From the sequence record PP400779: 64,000 nt of DNA, one strand, 5' to 3'. The notes under the pieces were generated by a model. That model was not told where the DNA came from. It did no database searches and worked only from the letters and a program-made list of their open reading frames with translations. The position numbers and the translations under genes were made by a program. This DNA is from Escherichia phage JM17. This document shows positions 3,221 through 49,605 of the stretch, in pieces. Each line of letters starts with the position of its first letter. Within the stretch, counting starts at the first letter, position 1.

Positions 3221-3394
3221 ATGACGAACGACCTGACCTCTGAAAATTTCGATAAAATCCGTAAAGGCAAAGCAGAAAGAATGAGACGTTTTAAAGAGTC
3301 TTACGATAAAGCTAAAGCCGAAGGAACTATTACATACAAGCCCATTCGATTTAAAAGTTCAAATGAGCCTCTGTACGGTGTACTATGTGGATAG
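3221..3394 (+). CDS. hypothetical small protein (57 aa)
   Basis: ORF below track cutoff; ends exactly at a UUCG hairpin terminator. Confidence 0.3.
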   Translation: MTNDLTSENFDKIRKGKAERMRRFKESYDKAKAEGTITYKPIRFKSSNEPLYGVLCG

Positions 3395-3418
3395 GAACTC
3401 TTCGGAGTTCCTTTTTTG
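3394..3418 (+). terminator. intrinsic terminator (UUCG tetraloop hairpin + T-run)
   Basis: ggaactc-ttcg-gagttcc followed by tttttt. Confidence 0.6.
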
Positions 3419-3463
3419 CTTTATAAACGGATGATAGAATGAATTAACTAATGAGGAAATAAT

Positions 3464-4737: not shown

Positions 4738-4963
4738 TTATGAAATCCATCGTCATGAATTTAGTATTGGTGACGGTTATATTGGTATCGTTGAATGGAC
4801 TGAGAATTACGAGGAATCAACTCCTCGTTTCTTTGGAACAATGTATGTTACCTGTGAGTACGCACCAGGTGTTGTTATGTATGCAGAACTAGATGAATAT
4901 TTTGCTGATAGGGATGACATGTTAAAATATGTAGAGGACTTCATTCGAAGAGAATACATATGA
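4724..4963 (+). CDS. hypothetical protein (79 aa)
   Basis: ATG 4724 with gagga RBS; ends overlapping gene 46 start. Confidence 0.4.
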   Translation: MTKTDYEIHRHEFSIGDGYIGIVEWTENYEESTPRFFGTMYVTCEYAPGVVMYAELDEYFADRDDMLKYVEDFIRREYI

Positions 4964-6648
4964 AATCATTTAAATTAAATCGTGTTCGTTATCAAAACAT
5001 CATGTCGGTAGGTGGGAATCCTATTGATATCCAATTAGATAAAGTCCAAAAGACATTAATCACTGGTAAAAATGGTGGCGGTAAATCTACGATGTTAGAA
5101 GCCATTACTTTCGGACTTTTCGGTAAACCATTTCGTGATGTTAAGAAAGGACAAATCATTAATAGCACGAACAAGAAAGAGCTCTTAGTTGAGCTTTGGA
5201 TGGAATTCGATGATAAAAAATACTTCATTAAACGTGGCCAAAAGCCCAATATTTTCGAAATCTCCGTTGACGGTGTTCGTCTTGATGAATCTGCCAGCAG
5301 TCGCGACTTCCAAGAAGAATTTGAACGTAGCATCGGAATGTCATACGCGTCTTTTAAACAAATCGTTGTGCTTGGGACGGCAGGATATACCCCTTTCATG
5401 GCTCTTAGCACCCCTGCTCGTAGAAAACTTGTCGAAGACCTTTTAGAAGTCGGCACACTCGCTGAAATGGATAAAATCAATAAGTCTCAAGTTCGCGAAC
5501 TTAATTCTCAGGGACAAGTTCTTGATGCCAAGAAAGATGGTGTTATCCAACAAATTAAGATTTATAACGAGAATATCGAACGTCAAAAGAAATTATCTGG
5601 TGATAATGTAGCGCGTCTACAGAATATGTATGACGACCTAGCCAAAGAAGCTCGTTCATTAAAAGCAGAAATTGAAGAAGCTAATGAGCGACTACTTAAT
5701 ATCGTTCTTGATGAAGACCCTACTGAGGCATTCAACAAGATAGGACAAGAAGCATTCTTGATTAAATCTAAAATCGACTCATATAACAAAGTTATTAAGA
5801 TGTATCATGATGGCGGTACATGTCCTACTTGTGCATCACAGTTGCACCAGGGTGACCCTATTGTCTCTAAGATTACCGATAAGCTTCATGAATGTAATCA
5901 CTCATTCGAGCAACTTACCTGTCACAGAGATAATCTGAGTGTCCTAGTGGACGAATATCGAGCTAATGTTAAGACTAAACAGGACCTTGCATCCGATATT
6001 CGTACCAAGAAACAAGCAATGATTGCCACTATTGATAAAGCTAAGAAAGTTAAAGCTGCAATAGAACAAGCCTCGGCGGAATTTATCGACCATGCTGATG
6101 AGATAGCTTTGCTTCAAAAAGAACTTGATAAAATCATTAAAACAAAATCAGATATCGTTCTTGAAAAATATCATCGTGGTATTATCACAGATATGTTAAA
6201 AGATTCTGGTATTAAAGGTGCTATCATTAAAAAATATGTGCCTCTGTTTAATAAGCAGATTAACCATTATCTTAAAATCATGGAAGCCGATTACGTGTTT
6301 TCTATTGACGAAGAATTCAATGAATCTATAAAATCACGTGGCCGTGAAGAGTTCAGTTATGCTTCATTTAGTCAAGGTGAAAAGGCACGTATCGATATCG
6401 CATTGTTGTTTACATGGCGAGATATTGCTGAAAAGGTTTCTGGTGTTAAAATCAACACTCTAATTCTTGATGAGGTTTTTGATGGTGCTGTCGATTCTGA
6501 GGCTGTTAAGGCTATAGATACCATCCTTGGTAGTTTACAAAATACTAACGTGTTCATTATCTCTCATCGAGACCATGACCCTCAACGTTATGGACAACAT
6601 CTTCAAATGAGCAAAGTTGGACGATTTACTGTGATGACTGTCTCATAA
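4960..6648 (+). CDS. 46: recombination/repair ATPase gp46 (Rad50/SbcC-like)
   Basis: 562 aa; Walker A GKNGGGKST, long coiled coil with CPTC zinc hook, C-terminal LILDEVFDG. Confidence 0.9.
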   Translation: MKSFKLNRVRYQNIMSVGGNPIDIQLDKVQKTLITGKNGGGKSTMLEAITFGLFGKPFRDVKKGQIINSTNKKELLVELWMEFDDKKYFIKRGQKPNIFEISVDGVRLDESASSRDFQEEFERSIGMSYASFKQIVVLGTAGYTPFMALSTPARRKLVEDLLEVGTLAEMDKINKSQVRELNSQGQVLDAKKDGVIQQIKIYNENIERQKKLSGDNVARLQNMYDDLAKEARSLKAEIEEANERLLNIVLDEDPTEAFNKIGQEAFLIKSKIDSYNKVIKMYHDGGTCPTCASQLHQGDPIVSKITDKLHECNHSFEQLTCHRDNLSVLVDEYRANVKTKQDLASDIRTKKQAMIATIDKAKKVKAAIEQASAEFIDHADEIALLQKELDKIIKTKSDIVLEKYHRGIITDMLKDSGIKGAIIKKYVPLFNKQINHYLKIMEADYVFSIDEEFNESIKSRGREEFSYASFSQGEKARIDIALLFTWRDIAEKVSGVKINTLILDEVFDGAVDSEAVKAIDTILGSLQNTNVFIISHRDHDPQRYGQHLQMSKVGRFTVMTVS

Positions 6649-6649
6649 A

Positions 6650-6684
6650 CGCTTTAACATGATGTGGTTATAATGACCACATCA
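6650..6684 (+). promoter_or_regulatory. promoter candidate with TATAAT inside a 9-bp perfect inverted repeat
   Basis: cgctttaa box-like element, then tgatgtggt-tataatg-accacatca (6660-6684). Confidence 0.35.
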
Positions 6685-6702
6685 AATTAAATGGAGAACA
6701 AC

Positions 6703-6891
6703 ATGGAGTATTCAACCGGTCAACATCTTCTTGTTGTCCCTGAAATTAAAAAATATGTTTTGACCAATACGTTTTCAGGTGAAGAACATATTGTTACTGA
6801 ACAAATGCTCAAATCTGCTTTTAAAGATGAGTATAATAAAATAATGTCTAATCGCAATTCCGCATGGACAGTTACCGACTTCTACGAATAA
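6703..6891 (+). CDS. hypothetical protein (62 aa; T4 45.2 position)
   Basis: ATG 6703 with ggaga RBS; position between 46 and rpbA. Confidence 0.4.
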   Translation: MEYSTGQHLLVVPEIKKYVLTNTFSGEEHIVTEQMLKSAFKDEYNKIMSNRNSAWTVTDFYE

Positions 6892-6903
6892 GAGAGAAAT
6901 AAT

Positions 6904-7320
6904 ATGTTTACTACTGTTAAAGGTTTCACTGCTGCTGATCTGAAAGTTACTTCTATCCGTACTGACGCTAACCCACATAACCATAATCGTGTTCGTAAAG
7001 CATGGGTCCTGCATTGTGATGAAGCAAGTGCTAAAAAACTCCAATCTTTGCCACAAGAAACTCGTTTTATGATTTATGGTTTTATTGATAACGATGTATC
7101 TGATATGTGGATTCATCTGATGCGTAAGCACTATAAAGATTCTATCGAAGCAGGTGCTAAAATCGTTCTTGATAAAGACGGTTCTGAGCGTCTGGAAGAT
7201 TTCTACTGTGTTGATGCCGACGAACAACTAATTGCAGCTGGCGAAATTGTTGCTTCTAAAATTCCAGAATATATTGAATCACTGCCTGAAGCTATTAAAA
7301 AGCAGATGGTTGCTGCTTGA
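6904..7320 (+). CDS. rpbA: RNA polymerase-binding protein RpbA-like (138 aa)
   Basis: size and position immediately upstream of the gene 45 region as in T4; sequence only weakly recognised. Confidence 0.5.
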   Translation: MFTTVKGFTAADLKVTSIRTDANPHNHNRVRKAWVLHCDEASAKKLQSLPQETRFMIYGFIDNDVSDMWIHLMRKHYKDSIEAGAKIVLDKDGSERLEDFYCVDADEQLIAAGEIVASKIPEYIESLPEAIKKQMVAA

Positions 7321-7325
7321 TAATT

Positions 7326-7850
7326 ATGAATTTAATATATCTTATAACCTTTTATAATCGTGAGATTAAAAATGAATACCCGTGTTATTATATAGGTTCT
7401 AAAGTTTCGTGTCATTTTAATGGAAAGGATATTATTGAAGATTCTACCGGTAAAATATATACCGGTAGTGTTAATTCCTCGTATTCTCCTTTATATAACA
7501 GATTAATAGACCAAGGCGAATATTCTGTAAAAATTTTAGGCGAAACCACATTAGACCCTAGAAGAATAGAAAGACTATTCCAACTCAATGTTAAAGCCGT
7601 TTCAAATGAAAAATATTTTAATAAGGCTTATGCTAACGAGAAGTCTAGAATATCAGCTAAAGGATATGCACCGTATAAAAATTTAAAAACAGGCAAAATA
7701 GTAAAACTTTCTAAAAACGAAATAAACGAAGATTACGTCGGTGTTAGAAAAAATTGCAAATTGTCGGAGAATCATTTAAACGCAATTAGAGAATTTCAAA
7801 AAAACATATTGGACCAAAGAACGAAGAGAGAAAGTTTCTATTCGTTCTAA
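7326..7850 (+). CDS. GIY-YIG homing endonuclease, N-terminal catalytic part (seg-like)
   Basis: IYLITFYNREIKNEYPCYYIGSK matches GIY-(x10)-YIG; AT-rich codon usage unlike flanking genes. Confidence 0.55.
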   Translation: MNLIYLITFYNREIKNEYPCYYIGSKVSCHFNGKDIIEDSTGKIYTGSVNSSYSPLYNRLIDQGEYSVKILGETTLDPRRIERLFQLNVKAVSNEKYFNKAYANEKSRISAKGYAPYKNLKTGKIVKLSKNEINEDYVGVRKNCKLSENHLNAIREFQKNILDQRTKRESFYSF

Positions 7851-7854
7851 AAAA

Positions 7855-8217
7855 ATGTTTAACGATAGAGATTTTGCTTTAAAATTTAAAGATATAATGA
7901 ATTCTCCTAATGTTAAAGATAAAATAAAAATATCTAAAACATTGTATTGGTCTAAACCTGAAAATAGAGCAAAGGCCTCTATCGCAGCTTCGAAAAGAAA
8001 TGCAACCAAAGAATTTAAGGATAAATTCAGAAAATCTAAAGCTAGAGGTACATGGATATTTCATGAACAAAAATTAAAGGAATTGTGGATTGCTTTAGGA
8101 AAACCAAGTTATATTACATTTAGAAAACATGCAATTCAGCATGGTTTTAATGATGAATCATACCAAGGTGCTATCCGGTCTTGGACAAATTATTATGCTA
8201 ATAGGAAACCTAAATGA
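7855..8217 (+). CDS. basic protein, possibly the detached C-terminal DNA-binding part of the GIY-YIG endonuclease
   Basis: starts 4 nt after upstream stop in another frame; same AT-rich codon usage; K/R-rich. Confidence 0.35.
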   Translation: MFNDRDFALKFKDIMNSPNVKDKIKISKTLYWSKPENRAKASIAASKRNATKEFKDKFRKSKARGTWIFHEQKLKELWIALGKPSYITFRKHAIQHGFNDESYQGAIRSWTNYYANRKPK

Positions 8218-8900
8218 AACTTAGCCGTGAAACCGTAAATATTCTGAAAAACTTCGCTTCTATTAACTCTGGCATTCTGCTGAGTCAAGGTAAATTTATT
8301 ATGACTCGTGCAGTTAATGGCACCACTTATGCGGAAGCAAATATCTCTGATGAAATTGATTTTGACGTAGCACTTTATGATTTGAATAGCTTCTTAAGCA
8401 TTTTGAGTCTAGTGTCTGATGATGCTGAAATTTCAATGCACACTGATGGCAATATTAAAATTGCAGATACACGTTCCACAGTTTATTGGCCTGCCGCTGA
8501 CAAGAGCACCATTGTTTTTCCTAATAAGCCAATTCAATTCCCAGTGGCTTCTGTGATTACTGAAATTAAAGCTGAAGACCTTCAACAATTGCTTCGAGTT
8601 TCACGTGGACTTCAGATTGATACAATTGCTATTACAAATAAAGATGGTAAAATTGTTATCAATGGCTATAATAAAGTTGAAGATTCCGGACTAACTCGTC
8701 CTAAGTATTCTTTGACTCTTACTGATTATGACGGTTCTAATAACTTTAACTTCGTAATCAATATGGCTAATATGAAAATCCAGCCAGGTAACTATAAAGT
8801 AATGTTGTGGGGAGCTGGTGATAAAGTTGCAGCTAAGTTTGAAAGCTCTCAAGTAAGTTATGTTATTGCGATGGAAGCCGATTCTACTCACGACTTCTAA
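8214..8900 (+). CDS. 45: sliding clamp gp45
   Basis: 228 aa, same length as T4 gp45; synteny 45-44-62. Confidence 0.9.
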   Translation: MKLSRETVNILKNFASINSGILLSQGKFIMTRAVNGTTYAEANISDEIDFDVALYDLNSFLSILSLVSDDAEISMHTDGNIKIADTRSTVYWPAADKSTIVFPNKPIQFPVASVITEIKAEDLQQLLRVSRGLQIDTIAITNKDGKIVINGYNKVEDSGLTRPKYSLTLTDYDGSNNFNFVINMANMKIQPGNYKVMLWGAGDKVAAKFESSQVSYVIAMEADSTHDF

Positions 8901-16956: not shown

Positions 16957-17296
16957 TTGTATAACAGAGTGGAATAACAATCGTGATTACGTGAACTTCA
17001 AACCAGACGTCGAAATGGTGTCTGCCATTAATGCCCTGTATGATGCAGGGCATACAATAACGCTTTACACTGCTCGAGGTATGAAGTCAGTAGGTCCTGG
17101 TCGTATAGCAATTGACATTCTCCCAAGTCTGATTCAGAACTTGGCAAACATTGGCTTGAAGTACCATAATTTGCTAACACATAAACCAGTATATGATTGG
17201 ATTATCGACGACAAAGCTATGCGTCCTGACGAATTCAAAGCTCTTATGAATAAAGGCGAATTCGAAACATTTAAATCATATAAACCGAATCTATAA
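16922..17296 (+). CDS. HAD-like phosphatase (candidate sugar-phosphate phosphatase)
   Basis: 124 aa from ATG 16922; N-terminal hhhhDxDx motif-like LCVDVDDCIT; small size typical of capless HAD. Confidence 0.45.
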   Translation: MKPLHLCVDVDDCITEWNNNRDYVNFKPDVEMVSAINALYDAGHTITLYTARGMKSVGPGRIAIDILPSLIQNLANIGLKYHNLLTHKPVYDWIIDDKAMRPDEFKALMNKGEFETFKSYKPNL

Positions 17297-32605: not shown

Positions 32606-33343
32606 ATGTTATCAAATAACAAAATCAATCGTCGTCTTGACCACACCAGAGCTTCTGCGAAGAGACGCTCTAAGGATTTTAACTTAGACTTTAATTACCT
32701 TAAAAACATTCTTGATCAAAAGGTCTGCGCTTACTCAGGTGAATCTTTTAATAACTCTGTTGAAGGTGAGAAATTATCCTTAGAACGTTTTAATAATGAT
32801 ATAGGCTACATTAAAGGTAATGTTATCCCAGTTAAGAAAAAATATAACACGGCTCGTTCTGATTTAACATTAGAAGAACTTATTGAGAAACGTGATGCCA
32901 TTGCAAGACGTATCGCTAATCCTTCTGCCCGTAAAGTAGAGAAACTTAATCTCGACGAGAAGAAATGGGCCCAAATTAAAAAGGTTTATGGTACTATTTT
33001 AAAAATCCGAGCAAAACGTGAAAATCGTGTTAAGCATATGGCGAACATGATGAAAAATCAACCTTTATCTAACGAATCTAAACTTAGAATTGTTGCTTTG
33101 AAAGCACGCATTAATGGCTCACATCAAGCAGAAGGCCATGAACTTACTAAACTCAACGTTCTTCTTAAAGGCTCTGACTGGAAAACTAAAACTAAATTAA
33201 CTGACGCTGAATCGCTTTTCGATACATATGATAAAGTTATCCAAGGTCTGCAACGTTTTGAAAAGATTAGTTTCATTGGTAAATTAAAATTGAAACGTGG
33301 CTTACCACTTAGCGCATCATTATTCCAACTGATTAAAGGTTAA
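32606..33343 (+). CDS. HNH_3-like domain protein (T4 srd position); endonuclease activity uncertain
   Basis: 245 aa; CAYSGESF...LSLERFNNDIGYIKGNVIPV resembles HNH_3 core but D-H replaced by E-R; K/R-rich C-term; native-like codon usage. Confidence 0.4.
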   Translation: MLSNNKINRRLDHTRASAKRRSKDFNLDFNYLKNILDQKVCAYSGESFNNSVEGEKLSLERFNNDIGYIKGNVIPVKKKYNTARSDLTLEELIEKRDAIARRIANPSARKVEKLNLDEKKWAQIKKVYGTILKIRAKRENRVKHMANMMKNQPLSNESKLRIVALKARINGSHQAEGHELTKLNVLLKGSDWKTKTKLTDAESLFDTYDKVIQGLQRFEKISFIGKLKLKRGLPLSASLFQLIKG

Positions 33344-36617: not shown

Positions 36618-36646
36618 GTTTACTTCTCCTCTGGTTTTGATATTAT
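36618..36646 (+). promoter_or_regulatory. early-type promoter
   Basis: gtttac 36618-36623, 17-nt spacer, tattat. Confidence 0.45.
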
Positions 36647-36672
36647 AACCATATCAACCAGAGGAGAATAAT

Positions 36673-37197
36673 ATGTTAGTTTACCGCGTAGAACGTAGTT
36701 TTTGTACTCAACGTGAATCATTACCAGGAATTGCTATCGAAGACGGTAAAGCCGTCAGAATTTGGGAAACCTCTTGGAATAAAGAACCTCGCTCGCCATA
36801 CGGTTGGTCGGGCACCGACAACTCTGAAGAAACATGGGAGTTCCTTGATAAGCATGGAATACTCTCAGGTAACTTCTACCATCACGGCGACAACTATAAT
36901 GTCCCTAATCGTCCTACAGTAAATGAAGACAAACTCCTTGAACAAAATATCTTAAGATACTATAGAATTGAGCACGCATTTGAATTGAGTGAAGATTGGG
37001 CTCAAGGGTTCTATTTTGGATTTGAAAGTGTTGACGCGGTTTATGCATGGTTTGATGACCAGGTGGATGTTGAACTCTTGAAAGCTAAAGGATACTACAT
37101 CGCGGTCTATGAAGCACCTGATTTCATCCTCGGAAGTTGTCAATTAATGTTTAGACGTTCATTGGCAGAACAAGTTGATTTTATTTTGCTAAAATGA
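36673..37197 (+). CDS. hypothetical protein (174 aa)
   Basis: ORF with accagaggagaataat RBS. Confidence 0.4.
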   Translation: MLVYRVERSFCTQRESLPGIAIEDGKAVRIWETSWNKEPRSPYGWSGTDNSEETWEFLDKHGILSGNFYHHGDNYNVPNRPTVNEDKLLEQNILRYYRIEHAFELSEDWAQGFYFGFESVDAVYAWFDDQVDVELLKAKGYYIAVYEAPDFILGSCQLMFRRSLAEQVDFILLK

Positions 37198-38076: not shown

Positions 38077-38502
38077 ATGGCTTTTAAAGGTTTTGAAGTT
38101 GGTAAGAAATATCGTATTATCAAAGGACAGGAAGATAATTTCTTGAGAATTCTTAATACGACTGGTAAACGTCTTAATACTAATCTGCATACTACTTTAT
38201 TGTCCAAAGATTTTATTGTGGAAGAGATGATTGGTTACGGTGTTTCGGTTATTGCTGTAGAAGCCGTAGGCGATTATGGCCGAACTATTCATAGTATGCA
38301 AGGTGATATTCTGCTTTATGGTGCAGAATTTAAATTCTTTGAAGAAGTTCCGGAACCAGATACAGCTGTCGATTTCAAAAAAGGCTCTATAGAATTTGTT
38401 GATGGTTCGGTGATCGTATCAGGCGATGTGGTCATTACAGTTAAAAGTGAACAAGGGCGTTTGGCTGCAATCGATACACTTCAGAAAATTAAATTTAAAT
38501 AA
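38077..38502 (+). CDS. hypothetical protein (141 aa)
   Basis: ORF followed directly by intrinsic terminator. Confidence 0.4.
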   Translation: MAFKGFEVGKKYRIIKGQEDNFLRILNTTGKRLNTNLHTTLLSKDFIVEEMIGYGVSVIAVEAVGDYGRTIHSMQGDILLYGAEFKFFEEVPEPDTAVDFKKGSIEFVDGSVIVSGDVVITVKSEQGRLAAIDTLQKIKFK

Positions 38503-38520
38503 GGGCTTCGGCCCTTTTTG
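38502..38520 (+). terminator. intrinsic terminator (UUCG hairpin + T-run)
   Basis: agggc-ttcg-gccct followed by ttttt. Confidence 0.6.
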
Positions 38521-38565
38521 CTTTAGATTTCGGATGATAGAATACCTTCATAACGAGGAGACAAC

Positions 38566-45824: not shown

Positions 45825-45860
45825 GTTTACAACTAAGTAGGACTATGATATAGTAGTCCT
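45825..45860 (+). promoter_or_regulatory. promoter/stem-loop cassette (early promoter + IR aggacta/tagtcct)
   Basis: gtttac 45825-45830, spacer 18, tatagt 45849-45854; 7-bp inverted repeat spans the -10. Confidence 0.45.
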
Positions 45861-45880
45861 ATCTAAAAGAGGATAACATC

Positions 45881-46336: not shown

Positions 46337-46372
46337 GTTTACATCACGGTAGGATTATGGTATAGTAGTCCT
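46337..46372 (+). promoter_or_regulatory. promoter/stem-loop cassette
   Basis: gtttac 46337-46342, spacer 18, tatagt 46361-46366; tatagtagtcct module. Confidence 0.45.
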
Positions 46373-46394
46373 ACTGAAACATGAGGAACACAAA

Positions 46395-46597: not shown

Positions 46598-46635
46598 TTG
46601 TACAAACTCTTGAGAGCAGAGTATAATGCTCTCAT
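46598..46635 (+). promoter_or_regulatory. early-type promoter with palindromic -10 (duplicate of 1139-1177 element)
   Basis: ttgtac -35, tataat 46622-46627; 34-nt identity with 1144-1177. Confidence 0.45.
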
Positions 46636-48972: not shown

Positions 48973-49605
48973 ATGTCTAAAGTTACTTACATCATCAAAG
49001 CTTCTGAAAACGCTCTGAATGAAAAAACTGCTGCAATAATGGTTTATATCATTAAGAACAACTTCACCACTGTTGCCAATGTCCGTGAAGCTCTGGAAGC
49101 AGAATACAGTGCATCAGTTGTTAACTCTAACATTGGTGTATTGATTAAGAAAGGTTTAGTCGAAAAATCTGGTGATGGACTTATAGCAACAGGCGAAGCA
49201 ATGGATATTATCCAAAAAGCTGCAGACCTCTTTGCCCAAGAAAATGCTCCAGAACTTCTTCAGAAACGTAACACCAGAAAAGCACGTGGAGTTACTCCTG
49301 AAATGCATGAATTAGCAAACTTTGTTTTTGAAAATATTAAAGATAAAGTTGAAGTTAAAGAAATTGGTGAAAACCGTAGTAACTTAGAAGTTCGATTTGC
49401 AAAACGAGTTCTAGGTATTCGTCAGATCGAAATTCGTCGAGATGGCGCTCTTAGAATCTTTGCATACAACATGTCAGAAACTGAATCAAAGCTGTTTACT
49501 TCTCTTGAAAATGATGTTAAGATTAAAATCGGTGGTAAATATACTTACATTGACTTCCCTAATGTGTCCAAAGAAATCATTACCCTTGTAACTAATGTAC
49601 TGTGA
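48973..49605 (+). CDS. motA: middle-transcription activator MotA
   Basis: 210 aa; MSKVTYIIKAS...VNSNIGVLIKKGLVEKSGDGLI..GEA close to remembered T4 MotA. Confidence 0.85.
   Translation: MSKVTYIIKASENALNEKTAAIMVYIIKNNFTTVANVREALEAEYSASVVNSNIGVLIKKGLVEKSGDGLIATGEAMDIIQKAADLFAQENAPELLQKRNTRKARGVTPEMHELANFVFENIKDKVEVKEIGENRSNLEVRFAKRVLGIRQIEIRRDGALRIFAYNMSETESKLFTSLENDVKIKIGGKYTYIDFPNVSKEIITLVTNVL

Follow-up and report, generated by a model that had tools for sequence, protein, structure and literature searches.

The window, that is the whole 64,000-nt stretch of Escherichia phage JM17 DNA (record PP400779) that was analysed, belongs to a Mosigvirus, an RB69-like T4-type phage, and its best match is Escherichia phage FL18 (99.5%). 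The element described here lies between gene 46, which encodes a subunit of the recombination endonuclease, and the small gene 45.2. These two genes are separated by a spacer of 54 nt which is filled by a promoter and an inverted repeat (Table 1). The perfect core of the repeat is located 12 nt 3' of the stop codon of gene 46 (6646-6648) and 19 nt 5' of the start codon of gene 45.2. A spacer at this position is restricted to Tequatrovirus and Mosigvirus, since genes 46 and 45.2 abut or overlap in most of the other T4-like lineages sampled. A more distant T4-like relative from IMG/VR (contig 2974734865, gp46 identity 68%) carries a canonical terminator, aagcctc-ttatt-gaggctt-cATTTT, directly 3' of its gene 46, and the sequence beyond this terminator differs. 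The 46/45.2 junction is also a transcription-unit boundary in that contig.

Table 1. Features of the 46/45.2 junction and related genes in the window, in order of position.
Feature	Position	Strand	Sequence, basis or remark
Gene 46, recombination endonuclease subunit, SbcC/Rad50-like	4960-6648	+	ORF; annotated in FL18, RB69 and other records
MotA box	6647-6656	+	aaaCGCTTTA; 9/10 consensus positions, GCTT core intact
Full 39-nt quasi-palindrome	6653-6691		16-nt arms TTTAACATGATGTGGT / ACCACATCAAATTAAA flanking TATAATG
Spacer from MotA box to -10, 12 bp	6657-6668	+	Last 9 nt are the left arm of the core repeat
Core repeat, left arm	6660-6668		TGATGTGGT; sequence, inverted-repeat scan
Core repeat, loop	6669-6675		TATAATG; sequence, inverted-repeat scan
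Sigma-70 -10 hexamer, predicted P45.2 orthologue	6669-6674	+	TATAAT; sequence; in the repeat loop
Core repeat, right arm	6676-6684		ACCACATCA; sequence, inverted-repeat scan
Predicted transcription start	6681	+	A, 7 nt 3' of the final T of TATAAT, like T4 P45.2; in the right arm
Shine-Dalgarno of gene 45.2	6693-6696	+	GGAG; 1 nt past the quasi-palindrome
Gene 45.2, first gene served by the predicted promoter	6703-6891	+	Pfam Gp45_2, E = 2e-28; start as in FL18 and RB69
rpbA, RNA polymerase-binding protein, next in the unit	6904-7320	+	PHROG 1285, E = 5.5e-54; record annotations
Gene 45	8214-8900	+	After two extra ORFs downstream of rpbA
motA orthologue, activator needed by middle promoters	48973-49605	+	Pfam MotA_activ, E = 5.4e-39; MotCF, E = 2.2e-8

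The region between rpbA and gene 45 (7317-8217) deserves a separate mention. It contains two ORFs, one of 177 aa that matches a homing endonuclease family (PHROG 7504, 2.3e-17) and another of 120 aa. When positions 5500-8000 were used as query, only 9 of the 694 matching records covered at least 80% of it, so that these two ORFs are apparently missing from most Mosigvirus records. In AV116 the same region is annotated as a single CDS of 297 aa, which suggests that the insert is a mobile endonuclease gene, possibly split in the window.

The preliminary description of this DNA, made from its letters alone, had reported a 9-bp perfect inverted repeat with a TATAAT hexamer located wholly in its loop. 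This is borne out by the sequence and by a separate inverted-repeat scan. The pairing can be followed further outward, as TTTAA (6653-6657) is complementary to TTAAA (6687-6691) beyond a mismatch of 2 nt, and arms of 16 nt are obtained in this way. Because of this additional pairing outside the 9-bp core, the real object is a quasi-palindrome of 39 nt. Its mismatch block, 2 nt long in the window, measures 3 nt in the RB69 consensus and is absent in AV116. A 9-bp perfect repeat is not unusual by itself: seven perfect repeats of at least 9 bp with a loop of 3-12 nt are found in the window, for 3.6 +/- 1.8 in dinucleotide shuffles. The bracketing of a TATAAT by a repeat of at least 9 bp is expected 0.037 times per shuffled window, and at least one case occurs in 3.3% of the shuffles. 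The core (6660-6684) folds at -13.4 kcal/mol as RNA (z = -4.3) and at -8.0 kcal/mol as DNA, and the RNA of the larger interval 6640-6705 folds at -17.6 kcal/mol (z = -4.4). A search of Rfam with the element returned only matches far under the gathering thresholds (E = 0.3-1), and hence no known RNA family. The arms are single-copy, no other occurrence being found in the window with up to three mismatches allowed, and all matches of an exact-pattern scan of IMG/VR fell in Mosigvirus contigs, at this very locus.

The surroundings of the TATAAT are those of a T4 middle promoter. In promoters of this class a MotA box of consensus (a/t)(a/t)(a/t)TGCTT(t/c)A, whose centre is at about -30, is combined with an excellent sigma-70 -10 element located 12 +/- 1 bp further, and single deviations in the box are tolerated by MotA (Hinton 2010, PMC2988021). 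In the window, a C replaces the T at the first conserved position of the box. No convincing -35 element is available as a substitute, the hexamers located 16-18 bp from TATAAT (aaacgc, taaacg and ataaac) being poor matches, and a generic sigma-70 scan gave no site here. At the corresponding place T4 has the middle promoter P45.2, whose start at 33257 (Hsu & Karam 1990) is listed in the table of Hinton 2010 (PMC2988021). The T4 junction reads ttaTGCTTTA-N11-TATAAT and the mapped start is a G found 7 nt past the TATAAT. The two promoters have in common the 46/45.2 junction itself, the GCTTTA of the MotA box, a spacer of 11-12 bp, a perfect TATAAT and then the Shine-Dalgarno and the ATG of gene 45.2. 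They differ in the sequences of the spacer and of the start region, and in the length of the leader, which is 22 nt in the window and 11 nt in T4.

Comparable predictions exist for close relatives. In RB69, which is reported to have both MotA and AsiA, a middle promoter (Pm:36813) was predicted over the same sequence at 36773-36813 on the minus strand, with an HMM score of 20 that is tied fourth-highest of 32 (Nolan 2006, PMC1524935). In the GenBank record of SA79RD this sequence is labelled 'similar to phage T4 middle promoter', and a rho-independent terminator is annotated there as well. A literature search returned nothing usable in the way of genome-wide maps of 5' or 3' ends for T4 or Mosigvirus. 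Sequence and comparison establish the promoter geometry, the orthology with T4 P45.2 and the presence of MotA, as they do the palindrome and its natural variants; the start at A6681 and the dependence on MotA in JM17 are deduced from the analogy with T4, where the start has been mapped, and any activity of the hairpin is likewise deduced. There is little doubt, on this basis, that the TATAAT is the -10 element of the Mosigvirus orthologue of P45.2, and the consensus -10 of the preliminary description is very probably a working one. Early in infection, AsiA would remodel region 4 of sigma-70. MotA would then be bound to aaaCGCTTTA and sigma region 2 to the TATAAT, 12 bp downstream, and the transcription of 45.2-rpbA-(inserted ORFs)-45 would start near A6681.

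The resemblance with T4 does not extend to the repeat. In contrast to the 9-bp core and the 16-nt quasi-palindromic arms of the window, T4 P45.2 has a repeat of only 5 bp (tagag/ctcta), which folds no better than shuffled sequences (matched in 18/200). Repeats of 4-5 bp only are present in the T4-group sequences at this junction and, the other sampled lineages being devoid of the spacer, no compensatory covariation could be counted across genera. A survey of 29 mapped middle promoters, in the first 50 kb of T4, gave 2-5 bp for the best perfect repeat round the -10, as expected by chance; the location of the -10 in a hairpin loop was therefore rejected as a general rule of T4 middle promoters. 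On the sequences compared, the hairpin is an addition specific to Mosigvirus and no general property of middle promoters. Considering the 5-bp repeat of T4 and the lack of enrichment in its mapped promoters, any role of the hairpin would be dispensable for P45.2. The inverted repeat would form no part of the promoter mechanism, and would be a lineage-specific quasi-palindrome built round the -10.

The preliminary description had proposed that the formation of a hairpin or cruciform modulates the use of the promoter, and this proposal is not supported. The T4 orthologue works with its 5-bp repeat, the 29 T4 promoters are at chance level and the left arm (-21 to -13) is situated upstream of the open-complex bubble. 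A control exerted at the DNA level, by the extrusion of a cruciform or of a single-strand hairpin that would expose the -10 in the loop and tune its opening, is very improbable for the same reasons, even if it would make sense of the exact coincidence between the -10 and the loop. The DNA hairpin does fold at -8 kcal/mol, the perfect 16-bp arms of AV116 are in principle long enough for extrusion, and the template-switch signature described below implies intrastrand pairing during replication. Arms of 8-9 bp with a spacer of 7 nt are however short for cruciform extrusion, and no stable repeat exists in the orthologous T4 promoter or in the mapped T4 middle promoters. Moreover, the arms differ from one promoter of this kind to another, so that no common factor is implied.

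A palindrome placed over a promoter may also evoke an operator, here for a dimeric DNA-binding protein that would repress or time P45.2. The half-sites GATGTGGT and ACCACATC, 7 bp apart, are indeed directly over the -10 and the start, and they are invariant in 140 genomes. The site is nevertheless unique both within the window and within IMG/VR, it has no known candidate regulator, and it is missing in T4 despite the same flanking genes. Arms of 16 nt are in addition atypical of operators. This explanation, too, is very improbable.

The position of the predicted start has a direct consequence for the RNA. As A6681 is inside the right arm, the transcripts of the promoter itself would be deprived of the left arm, and the hairpin would be formed only on RNA reading through from the 47-46 unit, in which gene 46 directly precedes it. 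On this RNA the hairpin (-16 kcal/mol in the window) would begin 5 nt after the stop codon of gene 46, and could separate the 47-46 unit from the 45.2-rpbA-45 unit as a 3'-end barrier or as an attenuator. Like intrinsic terminators, it is a stable stem-loop found right after a stop codon, and the SA79RD record annotates the site in this way on the basis of a TransTermHP/WebGeSTer call. No U-tract follows it: of the 9 nt of its tail, AAAUUAAAU, 3 are U. The site 6660-6684 is absent from a terminator scan of the window, and the TransTerm list established for RB69 has no entry at 367xx-368xx (Nolan 2006, PMC1524935). Without a U-tract, the hairpin is not a canonical intrinsic terminator.

These observations also bear on the simplest alternative, namely that the TATAAT is incidental and that the element is the plain intrinsic terminator of the 47-46 unit. 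The annotation of SA79RD, and the canonical terminator found right after gene 46 in the IMG/VR relative, would agree with it. Not only are the U-tract and the call in both terminator lists missing, but the MotA box, the spacing and the -10 are all present and common to the mapped T4 P45.2, which makes this alternative the least probable of those considered. The element can be distinguished as well from the UUCG-hairpin terminators of T4, which abut Mot boxes: the hairpin of the window lacks a U-tract, and its centre coincides with the -10 instead of being located upstream of the MotA box.

An effect on translation can be considered in the same framework. The predicted cost of opening the Shine-Dalgarno-AUG region of gene 45.2 amounts to 4.4-5.2 kcal/mol in the read-through RNA, for 2.75 in an RNA starting at 6681, and the folds predicted for the read-through RNA pair the Shine-Dalgarno to the end of gene 46 (UCUC 6641-6644, CG 6650-6651). 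The Shine-Dalgarno lies outside the core stem, and this predicted pairing is weak and shifts with the length of RNA folded. The hairpin would make the ribosome-binding site of gene 45.2 less accessible on read-through RNA than on the transcript of the promoter itself. A loosely related arrangement is known for the T4 genes e, soc, 49 and I-TevI, in which a promoter is enclosed in a hairpin that sequesters the ribosome-binding site (Uzan & Miller 2010, PMC3014915). In these genes, as in the window for the start predicted by analogy, the proximal start falls between the arms and only the long upstream transcripts can fold. The T4 cases differ by their late promoter and by the presence of the Shine-Dalgarno or AUG in the 3' arm, while the Shine-Dalgarno of the window is 1 nt beyond the palindrome and weakly paired in the predictions. 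As a separate observation, the translation-initiation region of gene 45.2 (6693-6703, GGAGAACAACA) agrees at 10/11 positions with the consensus of strong sites for the RegB endoribonuclease, GG*AGRAYARAA, and early read-through transcripts might be cleaved by RegB at this predicted site.

The closest known kind of element is the promoter/stem-loop cassette of T4-like phages. PeSLs associate an early promoter with a stem-loop, most commonly placed between -35 and -10 or overlapping the -10, and one of these stem-loops cut lacZ read-through like a strong terminator (Arbiol 2010, PMC2839356). They were extended to the pairs T4/PST and nt-1/KVP40, and versions with a Mot box, called PmSL, were found in nt-1 (Comeau 2014, PMC4122927). 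The element of the window is likewise an intergenic composite of promoter and stem-loop, an overlap with the -10 being common among the PeSLs of phi1/RB49. It displays the order of features seen in PeSLs, with a stop codon at 6646-6648, the promoter at 6647-6681, the Shine-Dalgarno at 6693-6696 and the ATG at 6703. In the published cassettes the stem-loop is taken to terminate or attenuate the transcription that arrives from upstream.

Several differences must be underlined. PeSLs form families repeated in a genome, whereas the arms of the window are unique even with three mismatches allowed; being single-copy, they cannot serve as recombination linkers, contrary to what was proposed for PeSLs. 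PeSLs are associated with hyperplastic regions or indels. The present element is found in a conserved block of replication genes, although the spacer that contains it is itself confined to Tequatrovirus and Mosigvirus. In the T-even pair PST/T4, the published stem-loops are located upstream of the promoter and not round the -10. The element is best compared to a PeSL/PmSL cassette; Mosigvirus does not figure among the phages with described PmSLs, and the form with a Mot box and a stem-loop round the -10 would also exist in the RB69 group.

The explanation that combines these data is a P45.2 orthologue included in a promoter/stem-loop cassette, with a hairpin acting on read-through RNA. It is regarded as probable, with some reserve. 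The narrower proposition that the hairpin has a selected role at the RNA level is put forward tentatively, with somewhat less than even confidence. As for the suggestion of the preliminary description that read-through transcripts are processed or terminated at this site, an effect on these transcripts is plausible by analogy with PeSLs, for which the idea is already published. The weight of the observation for basic biology is small: an orthologue of a promoter mapped in T4 was to be expected at this place, composites of this kind have already been described in T4-like phages, and the promoter and stem-loop components are both annotated in public records.

Natural variation provides another type of evidence. 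The element, taken as 53 nt, was found in 140 phage records, which all belong to Mosigvirus. The consensus form, with a C at 6660 (117 records), has an 8-bp core and 16-nt arms interrupted by a 3-nt mismatch block. The change of this C to T, which is the allele of the window and also of FL18 and JS09, is found in about 21 records (5/5 sampled) and gives the 9-bp core. In two records of the AV116 type, AAA is changed to GTG at 6684-6686; this block is the exact complement of a CAC in the left arm, and the arms become perfect over 16 bp. For the alleles of 8, 9 and 16 bp, in this order, the RNA folds at -13.9, -16.2 and -25.5 kcal/mol. The element varies solely at positions where the pairing is extended, and no arm-disrupting variant was found in the 140 Mosigvirus records, among which divergence is low. 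An apparent second copy of the element in AV116 was rejected, as it was the palindrome itself, matched again on the opposite strand.

Variants of this type, which bring the palindrome nearer to perfection, fit either a correction by template switching or a selection for pairing, although mutation bias alone can explain them. The replacement of a whole block that makes a palindrome perfect is characteristic of template-switch mutations associated with quasipalindromes, which came to light in T4 rIIB (Klaric, Perr & Lovett 2020, PMC7202029). As in the hotspots of this type (Ripley 1982; PMC7202029), an imperfect repeat undergoes single- and multi-nt changes that raise its complementarity. Those hotspots were described inside genes, whereas the quasi-palindrome of the window overlies a promoter and is polymorphic among natural isolates. 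On the sequences available, the series implies intrastrand pairing of the two arms, at least during replication, from which a function does not follow. The 8/9/16-bp alleles of public genomes have the appearance of template-switch correction at work in phage populations in nature. This series is the only mildly novel point of the analysis, and offers cheap material for testing the effect of the hairpin on read-through, on mRNA stability and on the translation of gp45.2.

The same data are compatible with a functional promoter accompanied by a functionless repeat. A neutral quasi-palindrome, arising from a chance seed or from a single template switch by which the promoter's upstream half was copied downstream, would be kept perfect by template switching during replication. 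This would explain why all the variation in 140 genomes is directed toward perfection, including the replacement of the 3-nt block AAA by GTG in AV116. The reverse complement of the right arm begins with TTTAATTT, which is the T4 sequence running from the MotA box into the spacer, and T4 manages without a hairpin. In addition, an 8-bp repeat surrounds 0.65% of the TAnnnT sites, which would give about one promoter of this kind per genome if some 100 promoters are assumed. The enrichment of repeats round the -10 with unrelated arms is, on the other hand, hard to obtain from mutation bias alone, and no arm-disrupting variant exists in the 140 genomes, though their divergence is low. A neutral quasi-palindrome is the main rival explanation, possible but less likely than not.

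The opposite position would be to see in the 39-nt palindrome covering P45.2 a selected switch specific to Mosigvirus, acting on DNA or RNA either as an operator or cruciform that times the unit of replication genes or as an RNA insulator. This is unlikely. If true, palindromes embedded in promoters would be actively maintained in perfect form by T4-type phages, through template switching, the 8/9/16-bp alleles would be a functional series, and the -10 in a hairpin loop would represent a general promoter-insulating design in densely packed phage genomes.

The enrichment mentioned above refers to the window as a whole. The preliminary description had presented the -10 inside an inverted repeat as a recurring design, and this recurrence is indeed above chance, both in the set of predicted promoters and in the TATAAT counts obtained by shuffling. 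TATAAT hexamers bracketed by repeats of at least 7, 8 and 9 bp number 6, 3 and 1 (0.41, 0.12 and 0.037 expected); an element present as a duplicate and a site scored on each of the two strands are included in these counts. A repeat of at least 8 bp surrounds the -10 in three of 25 non-redundant predicted promoters, for 0.65% of the TAnnnT sites (binomial 5.6e-4). Since the enrichment at 5-6 bp is partly due to the consensus of the early promoters (TGATA...TATCA round the -10 and the start), only repeats of at least 7 bp are informative. The three promoters are located at 1153-1176 (duplicated at 46611-46634), 45838-45861 and 6660-6684, and their arms are unrelated.

The likeness that had been claimed between the present element and the duplicated one at 1144-1177 and 46602-46635 holds for the architecture, the latter consisting of TGAGAGCA/gagtataa/TGCTCTCA, and fails for the class of promoter. 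The duplicated elements are sigma-70 early promoters, with TTTACA or TGTACA, 17 bp and TATAAT, and the element at 6660 is a predicted MotA middle promoter. The MotA box had been missed in the preliminary description, and the difference in class was consequently missed as well.

Other sites of the window were noted in the course of this survey. The early promoters at 45838-45861 and 46340-46380 have the sequence TATAGTAGTCCTA in common; in the first of them an 8-bp repeat, TAGGACTA/TAGTCCTA, brackets the -10, and an imperfect version is present in the second. Together with the duplication of 1153-1176 at 46611-46634, this pair indicates that promoter-hairpin modules have been copied within the genome. 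A perfect 8-bp repeat at 17031-17053 (ATGCCCTG/CAGGGCAT, loop TATGATG), whose RNA folds at -14.5 kcal/mol, was left out of the class, being in a coding region and without promoter context. At 36626-36636 and 36656-36666, an 11-bp inverted repeat (ctcctctggtt / aaccagaggag) surrounds a 19-nt loop. This loop holds the -10 of an early promoter, TATTAT (36641-36646), with its -35 TTTACT at 36619-36624, and the 3' arm contains the Shine-Dalgarno GAGGAG of an ORF starting with the ATG at 36673. The region 36619-36675 is a textbook example of a T4-style promoter inside a hairpin that sequesters a ribosome-binding site, like those of e, soc, 49 and I-TevI. Finally, UUCG-tetraloop hairpins are present at 3393-3440 and at about 38500-38543, where the T-run passes directly into a MotA box (TTTTTGCTTTA..., followed by TAGAAT). 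Both sites are composites of terminator and middle promoter of the canonical T4 style, in contrast to the hairpin at 6660, which is centred on the -10.
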